NCBI GenBank assembly: GCA_905203475.1 | Contig: CAJKWD010000002.1 | Location: forward strand, 1,658 to 65,657 | Direction of reading: 5' to 3' | DNA from: an uncultured Acholeplasmataceae bacterium | GTDB taxonomy: Bacteria > Bacillota_I > Bacilli_A > RF39 > UBA660 | DNA: 64,000 nucleotides | Shown: one piece after another, positions 11,517 through 50,270 of the stretch | How positions within the stretch are numbered: position 1 is the stretch's first letter | Layout: every line of letters starts with the position of its first letter | Program-made: the position numbers and the translations under genes | The notes under the pieces: model-generated | What the model saw: the letters and a program-made list of their open reading frames with translations, nothing else | Told to the model about the DNA's origin: nothing | Databases searched by the model: none

Positions 11517-12127
11517 TGGGTTGGAACTTTTTTATGAATATCTGTTTTCAGATCATTCTTTAAGGGGCGTATTTGTAAGCCAATATAGATGACTTGTGTT
11601 TGAATAATCGTAAATAAAATACCATATACAACAGACCAAATACCAAAAGTAGCTACACCTATGATTAAAATAATCATTCCTATGATGCGTAAAATAATTG
11701 CTGGATTCCATTTGGGGTGAATTTTATGTAGATAAAGAGCTATGACATCATAACCGACAGTAGAGGAATCTTGACTTAGACAAAGATAATGACCTAATCC
11801 AACTAATACTCCAGCGATGACTACACATACAAATGCTGGAAGAGGGAAAGTAATTCCTGTCCAGTGAAAGAAGTTAAAGAAAATAACATAACAAATACTA
11901 CTGTAAAGAGATCTGATAAAAAATTCTTTACCGAGAAAAACTCTTCCAAATATTAATAAGATAATGGTAAGAGGAGTGCTAATATAACTTATATCAACAT
12001 GGAGGTAATGAGAAATTAAAAGAGAGGTACTTGTTACACCACCATTTATAATTTGATTTGGCACTGTTAAAAAAGCATATGCAGCTGTTAATAGTAAATT
12101 TCCAATCGTAATTATAACATAACTCAT
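11513..12127 (-). CDS. YitT/YczE-like integral membrane protein
   Basis: Polytopic protein with N-terminal LTVPNQIINGGVTSTSLL, characteristic of the YitT family. AGGAG RBS. Confidence 0.6.
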   Translation of the reverse strand: MSYVIITIGNLLLTAAYAFLTVPNQIINGGVTSTSLLISHYLHVDISYISTPLTIILLIFGRVFLGKEFFIRSLYSSICYVIFFNFFHWTGITFPLPAFVCVVIAGVLVGLGHYLCLSQDSSTVGYDVIALYLHKIHPKWNPAIILRIIGMIILIIGVATFGIWSVVYGILFTIIQTQVIYIGLQIRPLKNDLKTDIHKKVPTH

Positions 12128-12311
12128 ATTATCTACTCCTATCGTAATATTATTATTTTATCACATATCGTTCATGAAGTTCTTTTTTTGTTTAGATGAT
12201 TTTGATAAAAAGTGTAAAGGAAACGGAATATTCATATCGATAACCATCGTCTTATCATTTACGAAATGTATAGGTACGTGATATAATAAAAAAAGAATAG
12301 GAGCGTTTGTT

Positions 12312-13139: not shown

Positions 13140-14405
13140 GTGAAGCACATTTATACAAGCATTGATTTAGGTACAGATTCAATCAAAGTTGTTGTTTGTG
13201 AACTTTACAAGAACAAGTTGAACTTACTTGCTGCATCTTCCGAAAAATCAGAGGGAATAAAAAAAGGGTTAATTACAGATGTTGAGAAGGCAAAAACATC
13301 TTTAAAAAAAGCAATTTCTAATGTCGAATCCATGTTAGGAATTACTTTAAAACAAGCGATTGTAAGCGTTCCGAGTTACTTTTTAGAATGTTCTATGGTT
13401 AAGGGAAGTGTTGATATTCCTATGAATATCAATGAAGATGATGAAGCTTACGATGGAATTATTGATGGAAATGATGTTTCTCGTGTTATCTCTGAAGCAA
13501 TGAGAAGTTATGATTTTCGCGATCGTGAGATGGTTGCGGTTTTGCCGATTGATTTTTTAGTGAATCAAAAAGACTATGTAAGAGATCCAAAGGGGTTACC
13601 AGGAAAGACATTGGGTACGAGAGCAATGATGGTAGCAACGCCAAAAAAGAATATCTATTCTGTTGTTCAATTACTTTCTAGTATTGGAATTGAAGTAGTA
13701 GATATTTCAATTAATGCGATTGGAGATGCATATGCTTTTAAAAATCGTGAGATGGATGCTACAGTGGGAGCAATTGTCAATATTGGTTCTGAGACAACTT
13801 CTGTGTCACTTTACAACAAAGGAATCATTGTGAAACACGCAATGTTACAATTAGGTGGTAAAAATATAGAAAATGATATTGCCTATATTTATAAATTAAA
13901 AAGTGATGATGCTAGAAAATTAAAGGAAAAGTTTGCTTTTGCTCATAAGAACCATGCAAGTCAGTATGAAGTAAAAGAAGTTGCAAATGTGTATGGGGAA
14001 ACGGTAAAAGTAAATCAGTTTGAGATTTCTGAAATTGCTCAGTCGCGATTAGAGGAAATTTTAACGCTTGCCAAGAAAGAGATTCGTTCCCTTACGAGTC
14101 GTAATATTGATTATGTAATTATTACAGGTGGAACGAGTAATATGGCAAATTTTAATTACATTGCAAAAGAAGTATTTGGTAATATCGCAAAGTTAGGAAA
14201 TGTGAAATTAATCGGAATTCGAAATAATAAGTACTCTTCTGCAGTAGGAAATATCGCATATTTTGTAAGTAAATTGAAGTTAAAGGGAAAAGAATATACG
14301 ATGGTTAGTTCAGATATGGAGGAAGCTTTAGTATCTGTAGAAAATGAAGCAGGATCTTATGATTCTATGCTTGGGAAAGTATTTGGATTCTTTTTCAGCG
14401 AATAA
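13140..14405 (+). CDS. ftsA: Cell division protein FtsA
   Basis: GTG start with an AGGAG RBS. IDLGTDSIKVVV and GGTSNM actin-fold motifs. Confidence 0.95.
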   Translation: MKHIYTSIDLGTDSIKVVVCELYKNKLNLLAASSEKSEGIKKGLITDVEKAKTSLKKAISNVESMLGITLKQAIVSVPSYFLECSMVKGSVDIPMNINEDDEAYDGIIDGNDVSRVISEAMRSYDFRDREMVAVLPIDFLVNQKDYVRDPKGLPGKTLGTRAMMVATPKKNIYSVVQLLSSIGIEVVDISINAIGDAYAFKNREMDATVGAIVNIGSETTSVSLYNKGIIVKHAMLQLGGKNIENDIAYIYKLKSDDARKLKEKFAFAHKNHASQYEVKEVANVYGETVKVNQFEISEIAQSRLEEILTLAKKEIRSLTSRNIDYVIITGGTSNMANFNYIAKEVFGNIAKLGNVKLIGIRNNKYSSAVGNIAYFVSKLKLKGKEYTMVSSDMEEALVSVENEAGSYDSMLGKVFGFFFSE

Positions 14406-14420: not shown

Positions 14421-15536
14421 ATGTTAAATGGATTAGAAATGGATCAATTAGCAAAAATAAAGGTAATTGGTGTCGGTGGAGGTGGAAATAACGCCGTAAA
14501 CCGTATGATTGAGTCAGGAGTACAAGGGGTAGACTTTATTGTTGCAAATACAGATTTACAAGTTTTAAATAATTCAAAGTCACCAGTTAAGATTCAAATT
14601 GGTGCAGAACTTACAAATGGACTTGGAGCAGGAGCAAACCCTCAAGTAGGAAAAGAGGCTGCATTAGAGACAAAGGCAGAAATTGAAGCTGCTTTAGAAG
14701 GTGCTGATATGGTTTTCATCACTTGTGGTATGGGTGGTGGAACTGGTACAGGAGCAGCACCAGTTATCGCTGAAATTGCTCAAAATTTAGGAGCATTAAC
14801 AGTAGGTATTGTTACAAAGCCATTTTCATTTGAAGGAAAGAAAAGAATGAGCCAAGCATTAGCTGGGTTAGAAGAATTAAAGAAAAATGTAGATACATTA
14901 ATTGTAATACCAAATGATCGTTTAAGAGAAATTATCGATAAACAAACACCATTATTAGATTCATTTAAAGAAGTTGATAATGTATTAAGACGTGGAGTAC
15001 AATCAATTTCAGATTTAATTGCGGTTGCAGGGTTAATTAATCTAGATTTTGCTGACGTCAAAGCAGTTATGCAAAATCGTGGTAATGCTTTAATTGGTAT
15101 TGGTATGGGTGTTGGAGAAGATCGTGCTGCAGAAGCTGCTAGACAAGCAGTATCTAGTCCGCTTTTAGAGACAAGTATTGATGGAGCAACAGATGCTATT
15201 ATCAATGTAACAGGTGGCTCTAATTTAACATTATTTGAAGTAGAAGAAGCAGCTGATGTGATTCGTAAAAGTGCTAATACAGATATTAATACAATCTTTG
15301 GTGCTGTTATTAATGAAAACTTAAACGATGAAATTATTGTAACTGTTATTGCAACAGGATTTGAAGATGATGATAAAGTAAAAGATGCACAACATACATC
15401 TACAGAACAACAACCAAAAAGAGAAGATATTGCATTTACACGTAGTGAATTAAATCGTGATTTAGACACAGATGATGATTCGTCATCTAGCCCTGATATC
15501 GATATTCCTCCATTTTTAAGAAGAAGAGAATTTTAA
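14421..15536 (+). CDS. ftsZ: Cell division GTPase FtsZ
   Basis: [13 protein letters not shown], the GGGTGTG tubulin signature, and a C-terminal DIPPFLRRR peptide. Confidence 0.98.
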
Positions 15537-15557
15537 AAGGACATGTGTCCTTTTTTT
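15535..15557 (+). terminator. ftsZ terminator
   Basis: aaaaggac-atgt-gtcctttt hairpin followed by a T-run. Confidence 0.7.
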
Positions 15558-15630
15558 CTGTCAAATAGAGTAAAGTATAGTTGCAAATAGTAAATAAATT
15601 ATCCTTTTTGGAATATTTTGTCAAAAAAGC

Positions 15631-15659
15631 TTGTATTCTTTTTGGAAACATGATATATT
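15631..15659 (+). promoter_or_regulatory. Sigma-A-type promoter (TTGTAT-17-TATATT with TG extension)
   Basis: -35 at 15631-15636 and -10 at 15654-15659, with TG at 15651-15652. Confidence 0.45.
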
Positions 15660-15665
15660 TTAGTT

Positions 15666-15760
15666 GTAGGAAGAAATTCCTACGGGGATTCTACCCTGAA
15701 AAGGGTGGAGTAGTTTTAATTTCTACGACGGGTGGGAAGCGTATCTTCCCATCTTTTTTT
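15666..15760 (+). ncRNA. Candidate ~95-nt small RNA or leader of unknown class
   Basis: Sits between its own promoter and the terminator GGGAAG-cgtat-CTTCCC + T7 (15734-15760). Two hairpins (15675-15690 and 15691-15708). GGGTGG is duplicated (15703 and 15730), which allows alternative pairing with CTACCC. Confidence 0.35.
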
Positions 15761-15770
15761 GTTTAAATAA

Positions 15771-15777
15771 TTCGACA
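15771..15777 (-). promoter_or_regulatory. Spo0A box (TGTCGAA on the minus strand) overlapping the -35 region of the spoIIGA promoter
   Basis: TTCGACA is an exact reverse complement of the 0A-box core. TGaTATTTT extended -10 at 15796-15804. Confidence 0.45.
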
Positions 15778-15819
15778 TGATTTCAACAAGATACATGATA
15801 TTTTATTCATGGTGATGCT

Positions 15820-16602
15820 ATGAAAGTATATCTTGATCTTGTTTTTTTTATTAACTTTGGGTTTGATTTTATTCTTTTATTAAGTGTTTCTTATCTTTTA
15901 AAAAGAGGAAGTACAATTTTTTCTTGTATCAAAGGCGCTTTGGTAGGAGCACTATCCATTTTCTTTTTGTTTTTACCCTTAAACTCTTTTTCTTTATTTC
16001 TATTAAAAGGATTGGTTAGTGTTGTGATGATACTTGTAACATTTCATTATCAAAATAAACGCTATTTTATCAAAAATATGGTTTACTTATATTTAAATAG
16101 TATTGTCTTAGGTGGAGGGCTTTATTTTCTAAATGTACAATTTGCTATGAAGCAAAAGGGACTTATATTTTTTCACAATGGTGTTTCTTTGAATGTATGG
16201 TTGCTATTCATCTTATCGCCTATGATTCTTTATTTGTACTTAAAACAATTAAAGCAATTAAAAGTAAATTACGCATCGTATTATCAAGTATCATTTGTAT
16301 GGAAGAAAAAGAAATATCAAATGACTGCTTTTTTAGATACAGGAAATCAGATACAAGATCCGTATTTTAAGCGTCCAGTATTACTCATTAGTCCCAATGT
16401 TTTAAAAAACAAGATACAGTCACCAATTTATATTCCATACCATGCAGTCGGAAAAGATGGTATGCTTTCCTGTTTTTTATTAGATAGTATTCATATTGAA
16501 GGGGTAGGTGATCGTAAGAAAGTATTAGTAGGAATATTAGACGATAAAATAAGAATGGATGGAATAGAGATGATATTAGGAACAAAAGTATTGGAGGGTT
16601 AA
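15820..16602 (+). CDS. spoIIGA: Sigma-E processing aspartic peptidase SpoIIGA
   Basis: Five N-terminal TM segments, the FLDTGNQ active-site motif, and a position immediately upstream of sigE. Confidence 0.92.
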   Translation: MKVYLDLVFFINFGFDFILLLSVSYLLKRGSTIFSCIKGALVGALSIFFLFLPLNSFSLFLLKGLVSVVMILVTFHYQNKRYFIKNMVYLYLNSIVLGGGLYFLNVQFAMKQKGLIFFHNGVSLNVWLLFILSPMILYLYLKQLKQLKVNYASYYQVSFVWKKKKYQMTAFLDTGNQIQDPYFKRPVLLISPNVLKNKIQSPIYIPYHAVGKDGMLSCFLLDSIHIEGVGDRKKVLVGILDDKIRMDGIEMILGTKVLEG

Positions 16603-17295
16603 ATGTTAAAGAGAATATGGAATTTTTTAAAACAATTATTATGGGATGAGTATAATTTATTTTTTGTTGGAAGTAGTGATAAATTACCAGAACCATTATC
16701 TAGGGAAGAAGAAACAAAATACGTAGAACTTTCTATGCAAGGAGATGAAAAAGCACGGGCAAAATTAATTGAACATAATTTAAGATTGGTTGTATTCTTA
16801 TCAAAAAAATATGAAAATACAGGAATCGATTTAGAAGATTTAGTAAGTATTGGGACTATTGGATTAATTAAAGGAGTCAATACTTATAAACTAGATAAGA
16901 ATATTAAATTAGCAACCTATGCTTCTAGATGTATTGATAATGAAATTTTAATGTATTTAAGAAAAAATAAAAAGAGAAGGACAGAAATTAGTTTTGAAGA
17001 CAGTTTAAGTTATGATGGAGAAGGAAATGAGTTACATTTAGAAGATGTTTTAGGAACAGATGCGGACATTGTTACGAAAGGATTAGAAGAAGAAACAGAG
17101 AAGAAATTGTTATATCAAGAAATTGCTAAATTAAAGGGTAGAGATAAAGAAATTATGATATTAAGATATGGGTTATTTGGACAAAAAGAAAAGACTCAAA
17201 AAGAAGTAGCTACTATGTTAAATATTAGTCAATCATATATTTCTCGTATTGAAAAGAAAGTAATCAAACACTTAAAAGGAACGGTACAATCATAG
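16603..17295 (+). CDS. sigE: Sporulation sigma factor E (pro-sigma-E)
   Basis: Pro-sequence followed by LPEPLSREEE, NLRLVVFLSKKY, IGTIGLIKGVNTY and ISQSYISRIEKK. Confidence 0.95.
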   Translation: MLKRIWNFLKQLLWDEYNLFFVGSSDKLPEPLSREEETKYVELSMQGDEKARAKLIEHNLRLVVFLSKKYENTGIDLEDLVSIGTIGLIKGVNTYKLDKNIKLATYASRCIDNEILMYLRKNKKRRTEISFEDSLSYDGEGNELHLEDVLGTDADIVTKGLEEETEKKLLYQEIAKLKGRDKEIMILRYGLFGQKEKTQKEVATMLNISQSYISRIEKKVIKHLKGTVQS

Positions 17296-17315
17296 TTGCC
17301 GTTTTTTTTGAAAAT

Positions 17316-17324
17316 TGATATAAT
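17316..17324 (+). promoter_or_regulatory. Extended -10 promoter element (TGaTATAAT)
   Basis: Lies 27 nt upstream of the GT39 start codon, after the sigE stop codon. Confidence 0.4.
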
Positions 17325-17350
17325 GAAACATAGTAAAAGTAGGTGTCAGT

Positions 17351-19198
17351 ATGAGACGTAAAAAGAAGAAAACAGTTGAGAAATTTACTTATGAGAAAAC
17401 CAAAAAAAGAGAAAAATTTACAAAAGTAGATTGGGTTTGTCTAAGTATTATTGTGATTATTTTTGCTATTTTCGCATTTTCTCATTTAGGAACGACGAAG
17501 ATGGCTAATACGTATTGGAAGCCAGATATGAGTGGTGATTCTGTTATATTAGATATTGGTGATGCAGAAATAGACGCTATTTATTATTTAGTAGGAGTTG
17601 GAAATGATCCTTATGGAAATGTAGCTGATTTAAAAGATGTTAACTTTGAAATAGAAGCATCTGCTGATCAAATCAATTGGAAACCAGTCTCTTTAATTAA
17701 TGATATATCAATGTATAGTTGGACAGAAATACCTGTTTCTATTATTGGAAATCGCTATATACGAATACGAGGCTATCATACCGCAGTGGTAATGAATGAA
17801 ATTGGATTTAAAATAGCTGGTAAACAAAAACTGGCACAAGTAAAATACGTCGATGGAACAAGTTATTCCTATACAGGGAAAGAATTAATTGATGAACAAG
17901 ATAAAATATCATTGAATCCATCTTATTATGATTCCACTTATTTTGATGAGATATATCATGCGAGAACTGCTTATGAACAATTAAAAGGGTATCCAATTTA
18001 TGAGAATACACACCCAGTCTTAGGAAAAGAAATAATATCAATTGGGATTGCTATATTTGGTATGAATCCATTTGGATGGAGAGTAGCAGGTGTTGTCTTT
18101 GGTATTCTCATGTTACCAATCTTATATGAATTTTTAAAACAAATATTTAAAAAACCAATTATTTGTTTTATTGGCACTTTTCTCTTTGCCTTTGATTTTA
18201 TGCATTTTACTCAATCTAGAATTGCTACCATTGATACTTATGCCGTTATATTTACAATACTGATTTACTATTTCATGTATCGTTATTATCGGACGAGTTT
18301 TTACGATACTGATTTAAAGAAAACGTATAAACCATTGTTATGGTGTGGAATCTTTGTTGGAATTGGGTTTGCTAGTAAATGGAATGTTGCCTATGGCTTT
18401 ATTGGAATTGCTGTCTTGTTCTTTATGAATATCTATCGTCGTTATAAAGAATATATACATGCCAAAGAAATGGTCACAGTAAAGCATTCAACAGATGAAA
18501 TGGATCAACACGTATATGAAAGTTTTATTCCTAACTTAAAAAAGACAATTCTTCGTTGTATTTTATACTTTGTAATTATTCCATTATTGATTTATTATCT
18601 TTCTTTTATATTTATTTATGATATAACAAATATTGTCCAGTATACAAAAGATGTCATTGATTACAATGTTCATATGTTTCAATATCATAATGATTTAGTT
18701 GCTTCACATCCATATCAGTCTGCTTGGTATGAGTGGCCATTGATCATACGTCCAATTTGGTATGCATGGAATGAATCAACTGTTCAAATGGGAGCGGTAA
18801 GTAGTATTTCTGCCTTTGGAAATCCATTTGTATGGTGGGGTGGATTGATTGCTATGATAATTACTTTGATATTTGCCATCAAAAAGAAAGATAAAATTGC
18901 TTGGTTTATCGTTATCGGTTATCTCTCTGTTTATCTACCGTGGGTTTATATCACCAGAATTACATTTATTTATCACTATTATCCAGCTGTTATTTTCTTA
19001 GTTCTAGCACTTGCATATATTGCAAATAAAATAGTAGAAAAATGGAAATGGGGTAAACAATGTATTCTAATTTATGCGTCATTATCATTTATTTGTTTTA
19101 TATACTTTTATCCAATTTTATCAGGAAGTTGGACGACGAGAGAATATTTAAAACAATTACAGTGGTTTCCAACATGGACTTTTATGACAGGTGATTGA
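17351..19198 (+). CDS. GT-C fold, PMT/GT39-like polyprenol-phosphate-sugar protein glycosyltransferase with a discoidin-like loop insertion
   Basis: YFDEIYHARTAYE...YENTHPVLGKE..GI..FGMNPFGWR (the loop-1 DE motif of the PMT family). More than 10 TM segments. C-terminal HPYQSAWYEWPL. Residues ~55-160 resemble an F5/8 type C domain (FEIEASADQINWKPV...NRYIRIRG). Confidence 0.75.
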   Translation: MRRKKKKTVEKFTYEKTKKREKFTKVDWVCLSIIVIIFAIFAFSHLGTTKMANTYWKPDMSGDSVILDIGDAEIDAIYYLVGVGNDPYGNVADLKDVNFEIEASADQINWKPVSLINDISMYSWTEIPVSIIGNRYIRIRGYHTAVVMNEIGFKIAGKQKLAQVKYVDGTSYSYTGKELIDEQDKISLNPSYYDSTYFDEIYHARTAYEQLKGYPIYENTHPVLGKEIISIGIAIFGMNPFGWRVAGVVFGILMLPILYEFLKQIFKKPIICFIGTFLFAFDFMHFTQSRIATIDTYAVIFTILIYYFMYRYYRTSFYDTDLKKTYKPLLWCGIFVGIGFASKWNVAYGFIGIAVLFFMNIYRRYKEYIHAKEMVTVKHSTDEMDQHVYESFIPNLKKTILRCILYFVIIPLLIYYLSFIFIYDITNIVQYTKDVIDYNVHMFQYHNDLVASHPYQSAWYEWPLIIRPIWYAWNESTVQMGAVSSISAFGNPFVWWGGLIAMIITLIFAIKKKDKIAWFIVIGYLSVYLPWVYITRITFIYHYYPAVIFLVLALAYIANKIVEKWKWGKQCILIYASLSFICFIYFYPILSGSWTTREYLKQLQWFPTWTFMTGD

Positions 19199-19214
19199 TT
19201 CACCTGTTTTTATT
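19187..19214 (+). terminator. Rho-independent terminator
   Basis: acaggtga-ttgat-tcacctgt perfect 8-bp stem followed by TTTTaTT. Confidence 0.8.
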
Positions 19215-19241
19215 GCGATAAATGTGTAAAGATGATACAAT
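19213..19241 (+). promoter_or_regulatory. Sigma-A promoter of pilin-like gene 1 (TTGCGA-17-TACAAT, TG-extended)
   Basis: -35 at 19213-19218 and -10 at 19236-19241. Confidence 0.5.
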
Positions 19242-19266
19242 AAAAGTATCATAGGGAGTGGTTAAG

Positions 19267-20997
19267 GTGAAGATGTCAAAGAAAGCATTTACTTTAATTG
19301 AGTTAATTGGAGTAATTGCTGTTCTAGCGGTTATTTTACTTGTGGCATTACCTTCATTGACGAGAACATTACGTAATAATGCAAATCAGCAATATGAAAG
19401 TGTATTGAGTGATATTTTTTTAGCAGCAGAACAGTATACTTTAATAAATAAAGCGCAATTTCCTCAACTGGAAACACCAGGAGGAAGAGCTACTGTTACA
19501 ATTAAAGAATTAAAAGAAGCAGGTTATTTAAGTCAGAATTTAGAAAATCCAAAAACAGGAGAGAAGTTTCTAGACACAGATTATGTATTAATTGAAATAA
19601 ATAATGATTATACTAGAAATTACAAATTTAATGAAGGAGAAGCAACTGCAAGTCCTGATGCTACCGCACCTACTTATGCAGTAAATCCAGGAGCAGCAGT
19701 ATGGACCAATCAAGGCAAAACAGTAACTATTCATTATCCTGATGTTAGTAAAAACAGATATATATTTGAATATTCTCTAGATGGCGGAATCCATTGGACA
19801 ATAACACAAGAATTAAATACCGAAATATGGTTTTCTGAAAATGGTTCTATTATCGCACGAGTAAGAGATTCATATAATGAACGAGATAATTTAAATGGAG
19901 GAGTATTTAATGTAACAAGAATTGATAAGATACCCCCAACTTGTGTATCATCAGGAGGAAGTACTGAATGGACAAATGGTACAAGAAAGATTATTGGAGT
20001 ATGTAGTGATACAGGTGGATCCGGATGCAAAGGTAATATTTCATATACATATAATGCTGCAGAAAATACCAATTGGAATATTAATAACGCAGGACCAGCA
20101 GGAGCAGGACAGGCAGGGACTGTTTATGATAATGCTGGAAATAGTGCTCCATGTCAGGCCAATCAATCGATTCGTTTAGATCGAAAAAAACCAACATGTA
20201 CAAGTAGTGGTGGTAACTCTAATTGGGTAATAGGAGGATCTGTTAAATTAACTGGTACATGTAATGATGATGGCTCAGGATGTAAGGGAAATGTTACTAA
20301 GACGTTTTATCCAGAAACAGATACATCAACTGCATCTCCAGGAACTGTATATGATAAAGCTGGAAACAGTACAGTTTGCCCAGCCAACCAACATGTTCAT
20401 GTTACGAATAAATTAGATGCCCCAATTATTACGAATCCGACTGGAGGAAATTGGGTAAACTACAGTTATGCATTAACAGTAAAAACACCAAATAATAAAG
20501 TGAATGTCGCCTACTGGCAATGGCGATATGCAAACACGAGTTGGGCGACATATTCAAATTCCGCTAAAAACACATTTACAACTACTCAATACACAACAGA
20601 ACGTAATGAAGCAACATATATTCGTTATTGTATATCAAGTGGCCAATGTTCTTCTGAAGCGTCTACAATGATTCGTATTGATAAAACACCACCATATTGG
20701 AGAGTTGCAATGCATGCGGGAGGATACCATTATTCAGATGGATCTTATCAACCTTTTACCTGCTATGCGAAAATTGATATATATGATTCTGCTTCAGGAT
20801 TAGAAGGTATATATAATTTAGTTGGAAATTCTGGATCAATTATGATGGAACATGGTCCATTATATGGTGCTGCGGCAACAGGACCAGATGGATTTGTTAT
20901 GGGAAGCTTTGGTGCTTATTATGCATATTATGGATTCTCAGTTTGTGATATGGTAGGAAATTGTGCGAATCAACCAAGAGTTGCTGGATATTGTTAG
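19267..20997 (+). CDS. Large modular type IV pilin-like protein 1 (prepilin N-terminal cleavage/methylation domain plus 4-Cys modules)
   Basis: KKA|FTLIELIGVIAVLAVILL class III signal with Glu+5. A small pilin head is followed by two D..(P)PTC...GSGCKG...D(N/K)AGNS..C modules. The start is ambiguous (GTG 19258, GTG 19267 or ATG 19273); GGGAG RBS at 19254-19258. Confidence 0.85.
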   Translation: MKMSKKAFTLIELIGVIAVLAVILLVALPSLTRTLRNNANQQYESVLSDIFLAAEQYTLINKAQFPQLETPGGRATVTIKELKEAGYLSQNLENPKTGEKFLDTDYVLIEINNDYTRNYKFNEGEATASPDATAPTYAVNPGAAVWTNQGKTVTIHYPDVSKNRYIFEYSLDGGIHWTITQELNTEIWFSENGSIIARVRDSYNERDNLNGGVFNVTRIDKIPPTCVSSGGSTEWTNGTRKIIGVCSDTGGSGCKGNISYTYNAAENTNWNINNAGPAGAGQAGTVYDNAGNSAPCQANQSIRLDRKKPTCTSSGGNSNWVIGGSVKLTGTCNDDGSGCKGNVTKTFYPETDTSTASPGTVYDKAGNSTVCPANQHVHVTNKLDAPIITNPTGGNWVNYSYALTVKTPNNKVNVAYWQWRYANTSWATYSNSAKNTFTTTQYTTERNEATYIRYCISSGQCSSEASTMIRIDKTPPYWRVAMHAGGYHYSDGSYQPFTCYAKIDIYDSASGLEGIYNLVGNSGSIMMEHGPLYGAAATGPDGFVMGSFGAYYAYYGFSVCDMVGNCANQPRVAGYC

Positions 20998-20999
20998 AA

Positions 21000-21027
21000 A
21001 GGGAGAAATTTCTCGCCTTTTAATTAG
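21000..21027 (+). terminator. Imperfect hairpin followed by TTTT
   Basis: aaaggGAGAaattTCTCgccttt. Confidence 0.45.
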
Positions 21028-21061
21028 CATATAGTAAATTTCATGCATTGTATTTTCCTGC

Positions 21062-21090
21062 TTGAAAACATGTGAAAAGTATTGTAAAAT
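21062..21090 (+). promoter_or_regulatory. Sigma-A promoter of pilin-like gene 2 (TTGAAA-17-TAAAAT)
   Basis: -35 at 21062-21067 and -10 at 21085-21090. Confidence 0.5.
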
Positions 21091-21130
21091 TGTTATATGA
21101 ACATAAGAGATTATATACAGGAGGTTATAT

Positions 21131-22918
21131 ATGAGCAGTGAGATGCGATTGAAAAAGGGTTTTACATTAATTGAATTAATTGGAGTAATTGCTGTTTTAG
21201 CAGTTATTTTATTGATAGCACTTCCAACGATTACAAGCTCTGTTCGTCGTAATAATGAGCAAAAATACGCAAATACATTACAAGACATTTATTTAGCTGC
21301 AGAACAGTATACCCTAACTTATAAGGAAAAATTTCCTCAGTTAGATGAATCGGGTGGACGTGTAAAAGTTACGATAGCCGATTTGAAAGAAGCAGGTTAT
21401 TTAGATCAGCATTTAGAAAATCCTAAAACGGGGAAAGAATTTCTAGATACAGATTATGTATTAGTAGAAGTAGATAAAGATTATACAAGAAAATATAAAT
21501 TTAATGAAGGAGAAGAAACAAAAACCCCAGATACTACAGCACCTACTTATACTGTAAATCCAGGTGCAACTGTATGGACGAACAAAGGGAAGACAGTAAC
21601 GATTCATTACCCTAATGTCAGTAAAAATAGATATGTATTTGAATATTCTTTAGATGGTGGTGTCCACTGGATTGTAACCCAAGAATTAAATACAAATGTA
21701 TGGTTTGCCGATAATGGCAATATTATCGCAAGAGTTAGGGATACATACAACGAGCGCGAAAGCCTCAATGGAGGAGTATTTAATGTAACAAAAATTGATA
21801 AAATTCCACCAACATGTAAGAGTTCTGGAGGAAGTAATGATTGGACTGGGGGCTCAAGAACAATTACAGGAATATGTAGCGATACTGGTGGTTCTGGTTG
21901 CAAAGGGAACATCTCTTATACATATAATGGAACTACAGGAGAAAATTACAGTATTACCAATGCCGGACCAGCTGGAGTTGGAAAAGCGGGTGTTGTTTAT
22001 GATAATGCTGGAAATAGTGCTACTTGTCAGGCCAATCAAACAGTAAAGATTGATAAGAAAGCACCGACTTGTACGACAAGTAAGAAAGTAAATACAAGTT
22101 CTGTAACAATTACTGGAACTTGTAGTGATACAGGTGGCTCTGGATGTAAAGGAAATGCCACTAAAACCGTAACTGCTAATGGAAGTTATTCACCAGGTAG
22201 TGTTTCTGATAATGTTGGTCATACTACTACTTGTCCATCGACAAATGTAACGGAAGTAGATAAAACACCGCCAAATTGTCCAACTGTTACAGCAGACCAT
22301 ACAGCCAATAAATGGACAAAAGATAATGTGGTATTAACAATTACCCCAACAAGTGATACGAAAAGTTGGGATTGGTATAGAGGAGAAGGAAACGGAACAT
22401 ATACCTATGTTGATAACAATACTGGAAAGAAAACCAAAACATTATCTAATTCCGGAAAAATATCTGGACAAATCGTCGTTCGTGATGCTGCAGGAAATAG
22501 CCGTACATGTTTTACATCTAGTTATTGGATTGATAAAGTAAAACCATTATCACCAAAATATTCTAGTATTGAGATATCTGGAGGAACCGTGACATCAAAT
22601 GATTGTGGAGGAAAAGGTGGAACAGCGTCTGATGTAAGTTGTACCATTAATATTAGAGGAAGAAGATATAGTGCAGTTAGTTTTGAATTTAATACAGTTG
22701 AAAAAGATCAACATTCAGGAGTAAGTTATTCACAATATAAATGGAATCACAATGGAAGTGGAACAAAATGTCCAAACTGGTTTACAGGAGATTGTGGAGA
22801 TTGGAAGGCTGGAGTTGGAGGAACATTTACATATACGGATTTCGCATGGCGAAGTGTAGATAACGTTGGAAATGCAGGATATGCATTAAATATTAGAGTT
22901 AATTTTACATGGTATTAA
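21131..22918 (+). CDS. Large modular type IV pilin-like protein 2
   Basis: MSSEMRLKKG|FTLIELIGVIAVLA. The N-terminal ~330 aa are homologous to protein 1. The C-terminal ~322 aa are identical to protein 3. Confidence 0.9.
   Translation: MSSEMRLKKGFTLIELIGVIAVLAVILLIALPTITSSVRRNNEQKYANTLQDIYLAAEQYTLTYKEKFPQLDESGGRVKVTIADLKEAGYLDQHLENPKTGKEFLDTDYVLVEVDKDYTRKYKFNEGEETKTPDTTAPTYTVNPGATVWTNKGKTVTIHYPNVSKNRYVFEYSLDGGVHWIVTQELNTNVWFADNGNIIARVRDTYNERESLNGGVFNVTKIDKIPPTCKSSGGSNDWTGGSRTITGICSDTGGSGCKGNISYTYNGTTGENYSITNAGPAGVGKAGVVYDNAGNSATCQANQTVKIDKKAPTCTTSKKVNTSSVTITGTCSDTGGSGCKGNATKTVTANGSYSPGSVSDNVGHTTTCPSTNVTEVDKTPPNCPTVTADHTANKWTKDNVVLTITPTSDTKSWDWYRGEGNGTYTYVDNNTGKKTKTLSNSGKISGQIVVRDAAGNSRTCFTSSYWIDKVKPLSPKYSSIEISGGTVTSNDCGGKGGTASDVSCTINIRGRRYSAVSFEFNTVEKDQHSGVSYSQYKWNHNGSGTKCPNWFTGDCGDWKAGVGGTFTYTDFAWRSVDNVGNAGYALNIRVNFTWY
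21950..22917 (+). repeat. 968-bp direct repeat, copy A (3' end of pilin-like gene 2)
   Basis: Reading both copies side by side, I found no mismatch to 25637-26604 (offset 3687). Identity ends at the third base of the stop codon (TAA versus TAG). Confidence 0.9.
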
Positions 22919-22965
22919 AATCATCAATCGTAAATACTAAGAAAAATGCCAACTTACAATTGCAA

Positions 22966-22990
22966 CCGCACCAAAATGGTGCGGCTTTTT
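22966..22990 (+). terminator. Rho-independent terminator between gene 2 and convergent sigG
   Basis: ccgcacca-aaa-tggtgcgg followed by cTTTTT. Confidence 0.8.
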
Positions 22991-23003
22991 ATATATCTCA
23001 ATT

Positions 23004-23780
23004 TTATTGAATCATTTTTTTGATATGATCAATCCCAGATTTTTCTAATCGTGAGATTTGAGCTTGACTAATACCAATTTCTTCTGCCAATTCCATTTGT
23101 GTTTTACCAATAAAATATCTAGAAGTAAGAACATAGCGTTCTTTTTCTTTTAATTTTTGTAACGCATCATGTAAAGCAATTTTAGTTTCTAAAGAATAGT
23201 TCTTATTCTTTTTATCTTCTAATTGATCCTCTAAATAAATCGTATCTCCACCATCATTATAGATAGGTTCAAACATGGAAATCGCCTCTTTTAATGAATC
23301 TAAAGCGTTACTTACTTCATATTCTGATAGATTCAGTTCCTTCGCTACTTCTCTAATTGTAGGTTCTTTTCCTTGGATAGCAGTTAATTCTTCTTTTTTC
23401 TTTAATGCTTTATATGCAGTATCTTTGATACTTCTAGCAATCCTAACACTATTATTATCTCTCAGGTATCTTTTTACTTCACCTAGAATCATGGGTACAC
23501 TGTAGGTGGAAAATTTTACTTCATATGATAAATCAAAATGATCAATGGCTTTAATTAAACCAATACAACCAACTTGAAACAGATCATCCATGTTATCGAC
23601 ACGGTGATTAAATTTTTTTAAAACGCTTAACACGAGTTTTAAATTTCCTTGTATTAACTGATCCTTGGCAGATAAGTCACCTTGTTTTAATTTTTGAAAT
23701 AATTGAATCATTTCTTCATTAGTTAAAACTTTAATATTCGCAGTATTCACGCCACAAATTTCTACTTTGTGTCGTGCCAT
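23004..23780 (-). CDS. sigG: Sporulation sigma factor G
   Basis: MARHKVEICGVNT..., DLFQVGCIGLIKAIDHFD, KFSTYSVPMILGEVKRYLRDN, ISQAQISRLEK. AAGGAG RBS upstream of ATG 23780. The gene is on the opposite strand to spoIIGA-sigE. Confidence 0.93.
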   Translation of the reverse strand: MARHKVEICGVNTANIKVLTNEEMIQLFQKLKQGDLSAKDQLIQGNLKLVLSVLKKFNHRVDNMDDLFQVGCIGLIKAIDHFDLSYEVKFSTYSVPMILGEVKRYLRDNNSVRIARSIKDTAYKALKKKEELTAIQGKEPTIREVAKELNLSEYEVSNALDSLKEAISMFEPIYNDGGDTIYLEDQLEDKKNKNYSLETKIALHDALQKLKEKERYVLTSRYFIGKTQMELAEEIGISQAQISRLEKSGIDHIKKMIQ

Positions 23781-23847
23781 AAATAGCTCCTTTCTGTCTA
23801 TTAGAATATTGTACAAAAAAAGAGGGATTATACATCTATCTTGATAC

Positions 23848-23876
23848 TTGCAATATGTAGTGAAATATTATAAAAT
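23848..23876 (+). promoter_or_regulatory. Sigma-A promoter of pilin-like gene 3 (TTGCAA-17-TAAAAT)
   Basis: -35 at 23848-23853 and -10 at 23871-23876. Confidence 0.5.
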
Positions 23877-23902
23877 AAAAGATAGATAATAGGAGGCTAT
23901 GT

Positions 23903-26605
23903 ATGAGCAGTGGGATACGAATAAAAAAAGGATTTACATTAATTGAATTATTAGCTGTGATTGTAATTATTGCCGTGATTGCGTTGATCACATATCCAAC
24001 GGTTAATCGCGTAATTACCAATTCCAGGATGACAGCACTAAAAAATAGTGCTGAAGCATTATTGAAAGAAACAAATTTGCAAACAGCGATGGATAAAGTG
24101 GAAGGAAATACGCAAATTTTAATTACCGATGAAAGATTAAAATTAAAAAATAATCAATTTATTGGTGGTTTTATTTTTAAGAATGCAAATGGAAAATTAG
24201 AATTAAAAAATGTGACAAATGGATCATTTTGTATCAATGGAACAAGTGGAAATTTAAAAATTGAAAAAGGAAACTGTAGCTATTCAGATACTTCTGCCCC
24301 AACATTGACACTACAAACTGGATATATTGGTGCGACAGAAGCAATGGTACTTGCTAACGGATCTGATAATGAATCTGGCATTCGTGGATATGAATATAAA
24401 ATAGGGGATGGAAGTTATACTAAAGTATTAGGTAGTAATTTTTATCAATTTGAAGGATTAAAGAGAAATACAAGTTATAAAGTAACAGTCAGAGTCACAA
24501 ATGGAGCTGGTCTTACAACTGAAAAAAGCATTACATTTAAAACGAAAAGTATATCAGCAGCTACATTTATAGTGAGTGGTGCTTCAAAGTGGACAAATAA
24601 AAAAGATGTAACGATTAATTATCCAACCAGAGTAAGTGGCGTTACATATCGTTATAAAATAGGCAGTGGTAATTGGCAAGTACTTACGAGTGGTAAGAAA
24701 AAAGAGTTAGAAGTAAAAGAGAATACAACAATTTATGCAGAAGTGATATTAAATGGAGAAACAGTGAGTTCAAATGTTAGTATTACAAAAATAGATAATA
24801 CACCACCTGTTATTACAAGCATTAAACCAAATACAACATCTTGGGCACGTCAAGTAACGATTCAAGTCATTGCCACAGATACTCCATCTGGAATTGCTGG
24901 ATATTCATTTGACGATGGAGCAACATGGACAAGTGCCCCAACATATACTACAACTAAAAATGGAACTTATAAAATTAAAGTAAAAGATTATGCGAATAAC
25001 ATCGCAAGTGGGAAAATCACTATTAAAAATATCGATAGAACAGGACCTAAATGTGTTAGTAGTGGTGGAAGTAAGACGTGGACAAATCAATCGAGAACGA
25101 TTGTTGGTACTTGTATCGATGATGGAGAAGGTGCAGGATGTGTTTCCAAAACAGTTTCTAAGACAATTAGTACTGACGCTAATGCAACTATGTCACCAGG
25201 TGTTGTAAAAGATGAAGCAGGAAATGAAACAACATGTCCAGCTACTGAAGTTGTTAGAGTAGATAAAACAAAACCAACATGTACTGTATCCTTGAGTAAT
25301 ACAAATTGGACAAATAAAGCAGTTACTGCATATGGTAAGTGTCAAGATTCACTAAGTGGTTGTATAACAAATAATCTTAAGAAAGAATATACAACACAGA
25401 TGAATGATAAAGTAACTTTAGGTACAGTAAAAGATAAAGCTGGAAATGAGACAAATTGTACTTCTAGCCAAAATATCAAAATAGATACAACTCCTCCTAC
25501 TTGTACATCTTCTGGAGGAAGTACTGTTTGGACTAGTGGAACAAGAACAATTACCGGAGTATGTAATGATACTGGTGGTTCTGGATGTAAGGGTAATATT
25601 TCATATACATATAATGGAACTTCCGGTCAAAACTATAGTATTACCAATGCCGGACCAGCTGGAGTTGGAAAAGCGGGTGTTGTTTATGATAATGCTGGAA
25701 ATAGTGCTACTTGTCAGGCCAATCAAACAGTAAAGATTGATAAGAAAGCACCGACTTGTACGACAAGTAAGAAAGTAAATACAAGTTCTGTAACAATTAC
25801 TGGAACTTGTAGTGATACAGGTGGCTCTGGATGTAAAGGAAATGCCACTAAAACCGTAACTGCTAATGGAAGTTATTCACCAGGTAGTGTTTCTGATAAT
25901 GTTGGTCATACTACTACTTGTCCATCGACAAATGTAACGGAAGTAGATAAAACACCGCCAAATTGTCCAACTGTTACAGCAGACCATACAGCCAATAAAT
26001 GGACAAAAGATAATGTGGTATTAACAATTACCCCAACAAGTGATACGAAAAGTTGGGATTGGTATAGAGGAGAAGGAAACGGAACATATACCTATGTTGA
26101 TAACAATACTGGAAAGAAAACCAAAACATTATCTAATTCCGGAAAAATATCTGGACAAATCGTCGTTCGTGATGCTGCAGGAAATAGCCGTACATGTTTT
26201 ACATCTAGTTATTGGATTGATAAAGTAAAACCATTATCACCAAAATATTCTAGTATTGAGATATCTGGAGGAACCGTGACATCAAATGATTGTGGAGGAA
26301 AAGGTGGAACAGCGTCTGATGTAAGTTGTACCATTAATATTAGAGGAAGAAGATATAGTGCAGTTAGTTTTGAATTTAATACAGTTGAAAAAGATCAACA
26401 TTCAGGAGTAAGTTATTCACAATATAAATGGAATCACAATGGAAGTGGAACAAAATGTCCAAACTGGTTTACAGGAGATTGTGGAGATTGGAAGGCTGGA
26501 GTTGGAGGAACATTTACATATACGGATTTCGCATGGCGAAGTGTAGATAACGTTGGAAATGCAGGATATGCATTAAATATTAGAGTTAATTTTACATGGT
26601 ATTAG
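23903..26605 (+). CDS. Large modular type IV pilin-like protein 3 (900 aa)
   Basis: MSSGIRIKKG|FTLIELLAVIVIIAVIAL. Pilin head, then FN3/Ig-like modules (SGIRGYEYKIGDG.., SGIAGYSFDDGATW), four 4-Cys modules, and a C-terminus shared with protein 2. Confidence 0.9.
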   Translation: MSSGIRIKKGFTLIELLAVIVIIAVIALITYPTVNRVITNSRMTALKNSAEALLKETNLQTAMDKVEGNTQILITDERLKLKNNQFIGGFIFKNANGKLELKNVTNGSFCINGTSGNLKIEKGNCSYSDTSAPTLTLQTGYIGATEAMVLANGSDNESGIRGYEYKIGDGSYTKVLGSNFYQFEGLKRNTSYKVTVRVTNGAGLTTEKSITFKTKSISAATFIVSGASKWTNKKDVTINYPTRVSGVTYRYKIGSGNWQVLTSGKKKELEVKENTTIYAEVILNGETVSSNVSITKIDNTPPVITSIKPNTTSWARQVTIQVIATDTPSGIAGYSFDDGATWTSAPTYTTTKNGTYKIKVKDYANNIASGKITIKNIDRTGPKCVSSGGSKTWTNQSRTIVGTCIDDGEGAGCVSKTVSKTISTDANATMSPGVVKDEAGNETTCPATEVVRVDKTKPTCTVSLSNTNWTNKAVTAYGKCQDSLSGCITNNLKKEYTTQMNDKVTLGTVKDKAGNETNCTSSQNIKIDTTPPTCTSSGGSTVWTSGTRTITGVCNDTGGSGCKGNISYTYNGTSGQNYSITNAGPAGVGKAGVVYDNAGNSATCQANQTVKIDKKAPTCTTSKKVNTSSVTITGTCSDTGGSGCKGNATKTVTANGSYSPGSVSDNVGHTTTCPSTNVTEVDKTPPNCPTVTADHTANKWTKDNVVLTITPTSDTKSWDWYRGEGNGTYTYVDNNTGKKTKTLSNSGKISGQIVVRDAAGNSRTCFTSSYWIDKVKPLSPKYSSIEISGGTVTSNDCGGKGGTASDVSCTINIRGRRYSAVSFEFNTVEKDQHSGVSYSQYKWNHNGSGTKCPNWFTGDCGDWKAGVGGTFTYTDFAWRSVDNVGNAGYALNIRVNFTWY
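25034..26218 (+). repeat. Tandem ~70-90-aa 4-Cys modules within gene 3
   Basis: Module starts are at 25034, 25262, 25484, 25739 and 25946. Each reads D..(P)P.C ... G.C.D..(S)GC ... D.AGN...C. Confidence 0.7.
25637..26604 (+). repeat. 968-bp direct repeat, copy B (3' end of pilin-like gene 3)
   Basis: See copy A. Confidence 0.9.
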
Positions 26606-26628
26606 AAAGTGATATAGTGAGGTGAGGT

Positions 26629-27009
26629 ATGAACAAGAAAAAAATAATATATTTGCTAATTGGCGCTGTTGTTGTACTGATAGTGCTTGTCATTATGATT
26701 ATATTTATGTTTAACAAAAATGAATCATCAAAAGAAAAAGAACCTAAAACAACGACTCCAAAAACACAATATACGGATACGGGTAAAGATTCAGAAGAGC
26801 CAAAGAGTACAGAAGAACAACTACAAATATTAGTAGGTGAAAATCAGTCAATAGAACGATATGAACAACAAGCAGATGGAACATATTATGTATATGTGAA
26901 GCCAAAAAAAGAAAGTAATATTCAAACAGGGTATTATGTAGTAAACTTGGATACAGAAGAAGTAGAATATCATTCGTCAGTTCAAATGACAGTAGGAAGT
27001 GAGTCTTAG
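26629..27009 (+). CDS. Single-pass membrane protein, unknown function
   Basis: GAGGTGAGG RBS. N-terminal TM segment, a Lys/Glu/Thr-rich linker and a small C-terminal domain. Probably cotranscribed with gene 3. Confidence 0.65.
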   Translation: MNKKKIIYLLIGAVVVLIVLVIMIIFMFNKNESSKEKEPKTTTPKTQYTDTGKDSEEPKSTEEQLQILVGENQSIERYEQQADGTYYVYVKPKKESNIQTGYYVVNLDTEEVEYHSSVQMTVGSES

Positions 27010-27020
27010 ACTCACTTTTT
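26998..27020 (+). terminator. Rho-independent terminator
   Basis: agtgagtc-tta-gactcact followed by TTTT. Confidence 0.8.
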
Positions 27021-27067
27021 AAATGCATAAAAAATATTAATTTACATATATTTGGTTAGGTGGTATC

Positions 27068-27301
27068 ATGCGATTATCTGATTTACAACATAAAGATGTT
27101 GTTAATATGATCGATGGAAAATTAGTTGGTAATATTATTGATGTGTCGATTAATGCCTTGAATGGGAATATGGAGAAATTAATTGTAGAGAAAAGTAAAT
27201 TTTTTGTCTCTTTATTTTCTAATAAAAATGAAATAGAGATAAAATGGGAACAAATCGAAAAAATTGGAGAAGATGTGATATTAGTTCGAATTGATTTGTG
27301 A
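27068..27301 (+). CDS. ylmC: YlmC/YmxH-family (PRC-barrel) sporulation protein
   Basis: MRLSDLQHKDVVNMIDGKLVGNIIDV....EKIGEDVILV. ylmC lies in the ylm gene cluster just downstream of sigG in Bacillus subtilis. Confidence 0.85.
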   Translation: MRLSDLQHKDVVNMIDGKLVGNIIDVSINALNGNMEKLIVEKSKFFVSLFSNKNEIEIKWEQIEKIGEDVILVRIDL

Positions 27302-27325: not shown

Positions 27326-27460
27326 ATGGCAATAAAAACACAGATTAAAAATGATGATGTATTAGATGAATTATTAAAGAAATATAATTTAGAATTAGTA
27401 TTAGATCCGAAAGAGCAAAAGAAGGATCAGAAAAAAGAAAAATCAAGTAAAAAACAATAG
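27326..27460 (+). CDS. Candidate 44-aa Lys-rich small protein
   Basis: AGGTGA RBS 7 nt upstream of the ATG. Below the ORF-track length cut-off. No homology recognised. Confidence 0.3.
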   Translation: MAIKTQIKNDDVLDELLKKYNLELVLDPKEQKKDQKKEKSSKKQ

Positions 27461-50251: not shown

Positions 50252-50270
50252 ATAAATATATTAAATGTCT

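Follow-up and report, generated by a model that had tools for sequence, protein, structure and literature searches.

The interval between sigE and ylmC in a stretch of 64,000 nucleotides (nt) from an uncultured Acholeplasmataceae bacterium (contig CAJKWD010000002.1; hereafter the window, meaning the whole stretch) has probably been shaped by stepwise, lineage-specific remodelling of the spoIIGA-sigE-sigG-ylmC sporulation locus in a clade of uncultured gut Bacilli, and not by one insertion. In this interval (positions 17296-27067), spoIIGA and sigE on the plus strand are followed by a gene for a PMT-type GT-C glycosyltransferase, two pilin-like genes (pilins 1 and 2), the minus-strand sigG, another pilin-like gene (pilin 3) and a small membrane-protein gene, beyond which lies ylmC. 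The canonical Bacillus-type arrangement, in which sigE and sigG are co-directional, is not found, as sigG lies on the opposite strand with three genes between it and sigE. A first-pass annotation made from the sequence alone had drawn the same map, with sigG inverted and monocistronic, and had described the interval as a ~9.7 kb insertion. Its coordinates agree with the open reading frames (ORFs) and domains that we find, and the map is borne out by the ORFs, by their Pfam and NCBIfam identities and by a promoter belonging to sigG itself; the insertion survives only in part, as set out below.

Probable stepwise change between sigE and ylmC

Relatives of the locus were collected by a SigG-based scan that retained one genome per species, which gave 80 loci, all from uncultured gut metagenome-assembled genomes (MAGs) labelled Bacilli, Tenericutes or Mollicutes. 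The set includes Candidatus Fimihabitans (SigG 81%) and Candidatus Coprosoma (76%), assigned by NCBI to Mycoplasmatota or Bacillota incertae sedis, and as a group these genomes answer to the uncultured orders that PMC10868615 discusses in the vicinity of Mycoplasmatales and Erysipelotrichales. We compared synteny across all loci with tblastn and ORF maps. The tight order spoIIGA-sigE-sigG-ylmC is present in two of them (L026 and L037) and nearly so in a third (L060), while most related genomes carry 1-8 kb of heterogeneous cargo in the sigE-sigG or the sigG-ylmC interval and many have sigG distant from spoIIGA-sigE. Relative to the tight order the window does contain extra DNA, and to this extent the proposed insertion stands.

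A closer look at the window's own clade indicates that this DNA did not arrive at once. The inversion of sigG is common to every sampled clade member, namely L011 (SigG 94%), L091 (90%), L012 (88%) and L013 (84%), and is therefore old; in the sister genus (L014-16) sigG is co-directional. The PMT gene follows sigE in L011, L012 and L091, and the 3.7-kb contig of L013 ends short of sigE and is hence uninformative on this point. In L012 (3418-5217) the PMT gene is split into ORFs of 376 and 223 amino acids (aa), either a pseudogene or a sequencing error in the MAG. L011, whose nucleotide identity is ~90%, follows the window without a break to position 19196 and resumes at 22996 with sigG inverted, so that it is without 19197-22995 only, which is to say without pilins 1 and 2. 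L091 is collinear up to 20731, has one pilin gene ahead of sigG and two behind, and holds at the equivalent position an ortholog of the pilin 1 that L011 is missing. The order is sigE-PMT-<sigG-pilin-ylmC in L012 and pilin-<sigG-ylmC in L013 (<sigG denoting the inverted gene). In L001, a different strain of the window's species, sigG is followed by two large pilins and an ORF of 245 aa. Within the clade, then, only the pilin genes vary, with 0-2 copies before sigG and 0-2 after it, and the number differs between species and between strains. Because the components differ in age, the inversion and PMT being shared across species and the pilins variable, the interval is not the product of one event. 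The comparison of relatives that the first-pass annotation had proposed as a check thus cuts both ways: the arrangement is shared, a point in favor of an ancient order, but its size varies, a point in favor of ongoing remodelling. A single ~9.7 kb insertion is not supported, given the limited difference in L011, the clade-wide inversion and pilin genes that are paralogous and variable in copy number.

These comparisons lead us to propose a history in three steps. A self-contained sigG module with its own promoter, ribosome-binding site (RBS) and terminator would have inverted in situ before the clade split into the species sampled here; a PMT-type glycosyltransferase gene would have come to lie directly after sigE, probably extending the spoIIG transcription unit; and a modular pilin array on both sides of sigG would be expanding, contracting and homogenising by duplication and gene conversion. 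In the resulting locus, spoIIGA-sigE may be driven from the region holding a Spo0A-box-like TTCGACA, an assignment to Spo0A that is putative and made by analogy with B. subtilis, and the unit that includes PMT would end at a hairpin at 19186-19208. sigG would be transcribed alone from GTATA-N17-CAATATT, translated from the ATG at 23780 and terminated at a hairpin common to it and pilin 2, and with a divergent upstream neighbor no upstream transcript would be expected to enter it.

Orientation of sigG and its proposed insulation from read-through

The window's sigG carries signals that fit such a module. Its -10 element CAATATT stops 24 nt ahead of the ATG, and an RBS, AAAGGAG, lies at 23787-23793. 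When the sigG leaders of the related genomes are aligned at the start codon they share the pattern G(T/A)ATA-N17/18-CA(A/T)(T/A)AT(A/G), which ends ~20 nt before the ATG. A strict regular expression for this promoter matches 66 of 82 sigG leaders; among 1120 other genes, searched at the equivalent position, it matches 36. No more than one nucleotide departs from the B. subtilis sigma-G consensus GNATA-17/18-CAWAMTA (PMC3416734, Table 4) in 52 of 81 sigG leaders, compared to 21 of 1120 other genes. Across the whole window, a sigma-G-like expression finds 8 matches where shuffling predicts 11, and the motif is therefore informative only through its positional conservation. The GTATA at 23829-23833, earlier noted as a candidate forespore -35, accordingly turns out, on the evidence of sequence, to be the genuine -35 of a promoter that is positionally conserved in ~80 related genomes. 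These patterns suggest that sigG is started by forespore RNA polymerase, with sigma-F and/or sigma-G as the likely sigma factor.

At its other end, sigG converges with pilin 2 on a hairpin at 22966-22984 whose fold energy is -15 kcal/mol on the plus strand (z -2.6) and -23.9 kcal/mol on the minus strand (z -3.6), with a T-tract that is strong on the plus strand and weaker on the minus strand. The convergence over a shared terminator, the divergence from pilin 3 and the impossibility of spoIIG read-through into sigG, all claimed in the first-pass annotation, hold up, given that sigG is on the opposite strand and its upstream neighbor is divergent. GC skew and gene orientation suggest that the plus strand is the leading strand, in which case sigG would be head-on to replication, plausibly a harmless orientation for a gene expressed after replication.

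Inversion of sigG extends beyond the window's clade. Relative to ylmC and/or sigE, sigG is inverted in 22 of 71 scorable loci, and the inverted ones fall into six clades on a neighbor-joining tree of SigG. Fitch parsimony requires 6 orientation changes on this tree (4-7 over 500 bootstraps, with 6 in 431 of them), as compared to a mean of 19 when tips are shuffled, and the genes abutting the inverted sigG differ clade by clade. Related lineages thus appear to have flipped sigG independently, with about six orientation changes. In full-text searches of the literature we met with no account of an inverted sigG. As comparative readings of MAGs, the repeated inversion of the gene and the association of inversion with a lost read-through hairpin, described next, both appear to be new.

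In B. subtilis, where misexpression of sigG is toxic, a large hairpin is proposed to keep spoIIG read-through transcripts from being translated (Mearls et al. 2018, PMC5942855, and earlier work cited in it). In the leaders of co-directional relatives, the promoter spacer contains AAAATCTCYTTT, complementary to the RBS AAAGGAGATTTT, and RNAalifold applied to 24 such leaders recovers an 11-bp stem with compensatory changes in 4 pairs (for example ACTCC/GGAGT in L061), which indicates that the hairpin is under selection where it is present. The 5' arm of this anti-Shine-Dalgarno (anti-SD) stem sits inside the promoter, between -35 and -10; transcripts that begin at the sigG promoter therefore lack it and only read-through RNA contains it, the same reasoning as has been put forward for the large hairpin of B. 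subtilis (PMC5942855). The duplex between spacer and RBS has a mean energy of -9.5 kcal/mol where the upstream gene is co-directional (n = 44; mean z against shuffles -2.7) and of -5.6 kcal/mol where it is divergent (n = 30; mean z -0.7), and in all six inverted clades the mean is weaker than the co-directional median. The anti-SD arm occurs in 27 of 46 co-directional loci; in another 12 there is a terminator alone, placed just before the -35. The window shows no significant RBS-sequestering arm, its duplex being -8.6 kcal/mol (z -0.8 against shuffles), whereas energies of -11 to -16 kcal/mol, together with covariation, are seen in many of its co-directional relatives.

These data suggest that inversion is a third way to insulate sigG from read-through, beside the hairpin and the terminator: co-directional relatives would obtain equal protection from an anti-SD arm in the promoter spacer or from a terminator before the -35, and the flipped gene would have orientation as an alternative insulator. 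We infer that insulation is the selected benefit of the inversion. A broader proposition, which we put forward tentatively and would not call likely, is that inversion has been both recurrent and selected, that among these gut Bacilli, whose genomes are small, sigG is always insulated by one of three interchangeable devices, that inverted lineages subsequently lost the hairpin, and that 968-bp repeats on either side of sigG (see below) make it deletable in one step.

Several observations weigh against this account. The Mann-Whitney comparison of duplex energies between co-directional and divergent loci (p = 2.8e-5) ignores phylogeny. Independent inverted clades number only about six, and p from a sign test over them is ~0.016. 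The tree on which orientation was mapped is built from a single 258-aa protein, SigG, by neighbor joining, and no mechanism for the inversions was found. Seven of the 46 co-directional loci are not explained by our crude terminator and anti-SD rules; in six of these, the leader sequences suggest an artefact of the rules themselves, arising from the start codon or a cut-off. The inverted loci L030 and L041, and the window itself, retain some T-rich complementarity. Finally, the window's sigG promoter has 2 mismatches to the B. subtilis sigma-G consensus, both in the 7-nt -10, and this -10 also fits that of sigma-F (GGNAANAMTR) poorly.

A neutral history, in which sigE-sigG-ylmC is a recombination hot spot and the anti-SD arm is missing through shared ancestry or relaxed drift, would accommodate some of these points, yet we consider it unlikely. 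It would explain why cargo in the interval is so heterogeneous across the group (PFL, an amidotransferase, a collagen-like protein and others) and why sigG is so often far from spoIIGA-sigE; it gains from statistics without phylogenetic correction, and also from eight loci in which the upstream gene is divergent though sigG is co-directional with ylmC, 6 of which likewise have no arm. What it does not readily accommodate is the agreement of six inverted clades out of six in mean duplex energy, the presence of a hairpin or terminator at nearly every co-directional locus by our own reading of the leader sequences, or the compensatory changes in the hairpin, which imply selection on it where it is present. 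In B. subtilis, misexpression of sigG is harmful (PMC5942855). Moreover, even if the rearrangements were neutral, loss of the arm after inversion would imply that the arm had served to block read-through. Insulation by orientation, if correct, makes these genomes a natural experiment on the shielding of sigG from spoIIG read-through, which has so far been argued chiefly from B. subtilis, and about six independent inversions with mostly hairpin-less loci would support a shielding constraint that gene orientation alone can satisfy. The comparison also documents sporulation loci in an uncultured lineage of Bacilli near Mycoplasmatales and Erysipelotrichales.

The pilin array and the origin of the interval

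The pilin genes on the two sides of sigG share an exact 968-bp direct repeat, unnoticed in the first-pass annotation, in which 21950-22917 is identical to 25637-26604. Pilin 2 is chimeric: over the N-terminal ~415 aa it shares 63% identity with pilin 1, and its last 968 nt are 100% identical to pilin 3. The corresponding copies in L001 are 99.9% identical to each other and 96% identical to those of the window, and L091 has a 1764-nt direct repeat across sigG at 88.6% identity. As the copies of L001 are closer to each other than to the window's, the repeats are evolving in concert, which at the level of sequence amounts to ongoing gene conversion across sigG, and the pilin genes are by the same comparisons paralogs of each other and not foreign cargo. 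If this is true, sigG lies between recombining direct repeats that could delete it in one step, and spontaneous asporogenous variants are predicted to occur in the gut.

All three proteins begin with a class III signal peptide, in which a brief hydrophilic leader closes on Gly or Ala and gives way to a hydrophobic tract bearing Glu at +5 (KKG|FTLIEL in pilins 2 and 3, KKA|FTLIEL in pilin 1), and the type IV pilin motif exceeds the cut-offs of Pfam N_methyl and TIGR02532. An AlphaFold model of pilin 3 built from 42 sequences (mean predicted local distance difference test score, pLDDT, 76.8) has an alpha-1 helix spanning residues 13-59, where confidence is modest (pLDDT 65-76), then a small beta head and a string of Ig/FN3-like beta-sandwich domains. 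Foldseek returns only generic multi-Ig/FN3 ectodomains with low template-modelling scores, and no specific function can therefore be assigned; searching the PDB by sequence yields only matches to N-terminal pilin helices and weak matches to collagenase PKD-like domains. The database contains 257 pilin relatives, few of which have a source name, and those that do are called prepilin-type proteins; many are gut-sample alleles that are 70-79% identical, and the closest relatives are 70-93% identical. A sigma-A-like promoter precedes each pilin gene as a consensus match only, and since this AT-rich DNA yields sigma-70 matches no more often than chance would (66 in the window where 67 are expected), such calls are weak on their own. 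The one ahead of pilin 3, back to back with the sigG promoter at a distance of 14 nt, belongs to a block TTGCAA/TTGAAA ... TATAAAAT that by eye is retained in L011 and L091. From these sequence features and the model, we regard the pilins as putative vegetative surface adhesins, possibly glycosylated by the PMT enzyme. What sits awkwardly with this assignment is that the ORFs of the 64-kb window include no pilus-assembly genes (prepilin peptidase, ATPase or platform). The uncultured orders RFN20 and ML615J-28 are reported to be without sortases (PMC10868615), and if the clade belongs to one of these orders, large hypervariable modular pilins beside PMT may be one of the main classes of surface adhesin there.

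The glycosyltransferase is a member of the PMT family (protein O-mannosyltransferases, GT39) and not an ortholog of the characterised enzyme, as it scores only 61 bits against the NCBIfam equivalog NF058602, for which the cut-off is 800. Its Pfam scores are 58 bits for PMT (cut-off 22.7) and 103 bits for PMT_4TMC (cut-off 32.4), it matches structures of yeast Pmt1/2/4, and its gene starts 55 nt past sigE with no terminator in between. That PMT also follows sigE without a terminator in three further species raises the question of whether the cargo is itself related to sporulation, for instance as glycosylated spore-surface fibres expressed in the mother cell, which would explain its place by sigE and sigG; in the same vein, a separate clade (L024, L025, L039, L076 and L086) has a collagen-like repeat protein after sigE and then a glycosyltransferase. 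We hold this to be improbable: the sigma-A-like promoters ahead of each pilin, if only consensus matches, include one that is conserved across species, no sporulation-type promoter was identified upstream of the pilins, and allelic diversity as large as theirs fits vegetative adhesins exposed to host or phage.

Between sigE and sigG the loci of that separate clade encode a collagen-like GPT-repeat protein, a glycosyltransferase, a YitT-like membrane protein and a PAP2-like protein, and they parallel the window in having glycosyltransferase and surface-protein genes after sigE; the collagen-like protein with its glycosyltransferase recalls exosporium glycoprotein loci. Pilin genes also recur around the cell-division and sporulation locus of other relatives. 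In L070, L088 and L089, which read ftsA-ftsZ-[1-2 genes]-sigG-ylmC with spoIIGA-sigE not in between, a small pilin-like gene lies directly upstream of ftsA, and in L058 and L077 one lies just upstream of spoIIGA.

Horizontal acquisition of one ~9.7 kb island or mobile element that flipped sigG on entering between sigE and ylmC is very unlikely, and is largely refuted by L011 and L091. It has on its side the tight ancestral order known from L026 and L037, the restriction of PMT and pilins to the window's clade among the 80 loci compared, and a GC content slightly raised over the pilins (0.35-0.38 versus ~0.28-0.33 in the flanks). The GC rise, however, follows the Gly/Thr/Cys-rich coding sequence, and we judged composition uninformative as a sign of transfer. 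Against an island stand the differing ages of its components, with the inversion and PMT spread across species at 88-94% SigG identity and pilins 1 and 2 missing from L011, as well as pilins that are mutual paralogs varying in copy number between strains. Moreover, Pfam and NCBIfam detect no integrase, transposase or recombinase family among all ORFs of the interval, a tRNA scan of the window finds no tRNA in or near it, and it is not bounded by direct or inverted repeats or an att site, the sole long repeat being the internal one between pilin paralogs. These searches confirm the earlier observation that the insert has no integrase, transposase or att-like inverted repeats. Presence or absence of the whole block was likewise not seen between close relatives, in which sub-blocks vary (L011 minus 19197-22995; extra pilins in L001 and L091) while the inversion and PMT stay.

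Still less probable is that sigG occupies a programmed invertible or excisable segment, flipped at specific sites or excised through the 968-bp repeats, as an on/off switch for sporulation. Repeats kept homogeneous within strains must be recombining, and orientation has changed repeatedly over evolution, but the interval has no recombinase gene, and inverted repeats flanking sigG amount merely to AT-rich matches of 70-80% complementarity, at chance level. An inverted pair around sigG picked out by eye, ACTTACAATTGCAA / TTGCAATATGTAGT, was not recovered by the repeat tool. A single orientation is seen in the 10 same-species contigs among those listed and at all 4 long-read loci of a sister species, and recombination between direct repeats would lose sigG irreversibly, which is no switch.

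The inverted sigG within its pilin array is not an assembly artefact. An identical SigG protein occurs on 12 human-gut metagenome contigs, and all 10 of these that are among the matches listed have the same divergent pilin gene beside sigG. Most of the short-read contigs end inside the 968-bp repeat; L003, a k127 assembly, breaks off after exactly 127 nt of either copy and L006 after 41 nt of either, which is how a de Bruijn graph behaves at the edge of a true repeat. Contigs assembled from long reads of the sister species (SigG 90% identical), as long as 431 kb and reached via the pilin homolog P0009, have the order spoIIGA-sigE-PMT-pilin-<sigG-pilin-252aa-pilin-242aa-ylmC, and it is this matching architecture that establishes the point; the first-pass annotation had allowed that long reads might expose an assembly error, and they show the opposite. 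A repeat-induced misjoin at the 968-bp duplication, suggested by a repeat longer than short reads at which most short-read contigs break, has next to no chance of being correct, given that with two direct copies A-R-B-R-C is the sole linear path using every unique segment once, that both copies are spanned in L001 and L002, and that the contig ends and the long-read layout agree with it. One sister-species long-read contig (L094, 9570-14143) has ylmC cut to 69 aa and followed by IS66, mutator-type and rve transposase genes, a junction that is insertion-sequence-rich or possibly chimeric.

Features of the window and comparison with known systems

Coordinates of the features of the locus are collected in Table 1. 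spoIIGA lies directly before sigE, whose start codon abuts the spoIIGA stop, and both are downstream of ftsA (13140-14405) and ftsZ (14421-15536). The best NCBIfam match of spoIIGA, TIGR02854, falls under its cut-off, and the best match of SigE, at 318 bits, is short of the 339-bit cut-off. The true start of pilin 1 may be an ATG at 19273. The 126-aa membrane protein is specific to the window's species among the loci compared (tblastn finds it in L001 and L002 only), and ylmC is next to or near sigG in most related loci.

Table 1. Positions in the window of genes, signals and repeats at the spoIIGA-ylmC locus
Feature	Position	Strand	Basis or detail
Putative spoIIG promoter region	15771-15799	+	Spo0A-box-like TTCGACA at 15771-15777; promoter-like match at 15772-15799; consensus only
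spoIIGA, pro-sigma-E processing protease	15820-16602	+	Pfam Peptidase_U4, E 1.8e-47, 162 bits (cut-off 28.4 bits)
sigE	16603-17295	+	Best NCBIfam matches are SigE equivalogs, 318 and 309 bits, ahead of SigK
PMT-family GT-C glycosyltransferase	17351-19198	+	Pfam PMT_4TMC, PMT and PMT_2, all over cut-offs
Terminator-like hairpin closing the spoIIGA-sigE-PMT unit	19186-19208	+	Hairpin search
Pilin-like gene 1, modular type IV pilin-like	19258-20997	+	Pfam N_methyl at residues 6-31
Pilin-like gene 2, chimeric paralog	21131-22918	+	Prepilin N-terminal methylation motif; paralogy to pilins 1 and 3
Repeat copy 1, 3' end of pilin 2	21950-22917	+	Exact-run search
Hairpin terminator common to convergent pilin 2 and sigG	22966-22984	both	Hairpin followed by T-run
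sigG, 258 aa	23004-23780	-	NCBIfam NF006071 SigG, 380 bits (cut-off 372 bits)
sigG promoter	23805-23833	-	-35 GTATA (23829-23833), 17-nt spacer, -10 CAATATT (23805-23811)
Sigma-A-like promoter of pilin 3	23848-23876	+	TTGCAA-17-TAAAAT; consensus match only
Pilin-like gene 3, 900 aa	23903-26605	+	Pfam N_methyl and DUF7743; TIGR02532, 33 bits (cut-off 16.3 bits)
Repeat copy 2, 3' end of pilin 3	25637-26604	+	Exact-run search
Small N-terminally anchored membrane protein, 126 aa	26629-27009	+	Sub-threshold family matches only
ylmC/ymxH sporulation gene, conserved right-hand anchor	27068-27301	+	TIGR02888, 77.6 bits (cut-off 44.2 bits)

Around these genes, the 283-nt spacer between ftsZ and spoIIGA (15537-15819) contains three terminator-like hairpins (15535-15554, 15688-15711 and 15730-15754) and matches no Rfam family, and an Rfam scan likewise has no match in or near the interval 17296-27067. 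The sole Rfam match in the window is a T-box leader (RF00230, 110.5 bits) at 50265-50446 on the plus strand, upstream of a group of ORFs (50483-53680) in which histidyl- and aspartyl-tRNA synthetase-like genes can be recognized by eye. Between ylmC and a GT4 glycosyltransferase gene, a Lys/Glu-rich ORF of 44 aa (27326-27460, plus strand) is among the genes called in L001 and L002 and has a 43-aa counterpart at the same spot in L091, possibly a conserved micro-protein. A 204-aa YitT-like membrane-protein ORF on the minus strand (11513-12127), between murB and divIB, is missing from L011 and L091, whose collinearity skips ~11535 to 12200, as in a second small species-specific insertion in the dcw (cell-division) region. 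Further along, a sigma-G-like GTATA-N18-CAAAATG on the plus strand (39413-39442) ends 16 nt upstream of an ORF for a 211-aa membrane protein (39458-40093), which by its sequence may be expressed in the forespore.

The locus is readily compared with spoIIGA-sigE-sigG of B. subtilis, where the three genes are also downstream of ftsA-ftsZ with ylmC beyond sigG, and where sigG also has its own forespore promoter with a GTATA -35 and a sigma-G-like -10, for which the window offers sequence evidence. The read-through hairpin of B. subtilis has its likeness in the window's co-directional relatives, as a spacer-RBS stem that can form only in read-through transcripts. Unlike that of B. subtilis, the window's sigG lies 5.7 kb away from sigE and on the other strand, converges with one pilin gene and diverges from another, is without a significant anti-SD arm, and starts with ATG and not GTG.

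By sequence and model, the pilins fit the concept of modular type IV pilins, of which Streptococcus sanguinis PilB is an example (Raynaud et al. 2021, PMC8179133), in that a predicted alpha-1 helix of ~47 residues has bulky modules grafted after it. They differ from PilB in being much larger (579-900 aa), in bearing a chain of Cys-containing Ig/FN3-like repeats in place of a vWA or lectin module, in being without nearby pilus machinery genes, and in forming a paralog array under gene conversion. The skin element in sigK and other sporulation intervening elements resemble the window's locus in placing extra DNA at a sigma-factor locus and in having direct repeats that flank a sigma-factor gene; here, by contrast, the sigG frame is intact, there is no recombinase, and the repeats are gene paralogs whose recombination would delete sigG and not restore it. 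A further parallel is provided by neisserial pilE/pilS, a pilin multigene family with gene conversion, in which, as in the window, paralogous pilins in one locus swap segments and are homogenised within a strain while diverging between strains. In contrast to pilE/pilS, the copies in the window look complete and expressible with promoters of their own, have no known silent cassettes or G4-type initiator, and have an essential sporulation gene between them. Taken together, the locus is a variant organisation of a well-known sporulation locus combined with a member of the widespread class of modular pilins.

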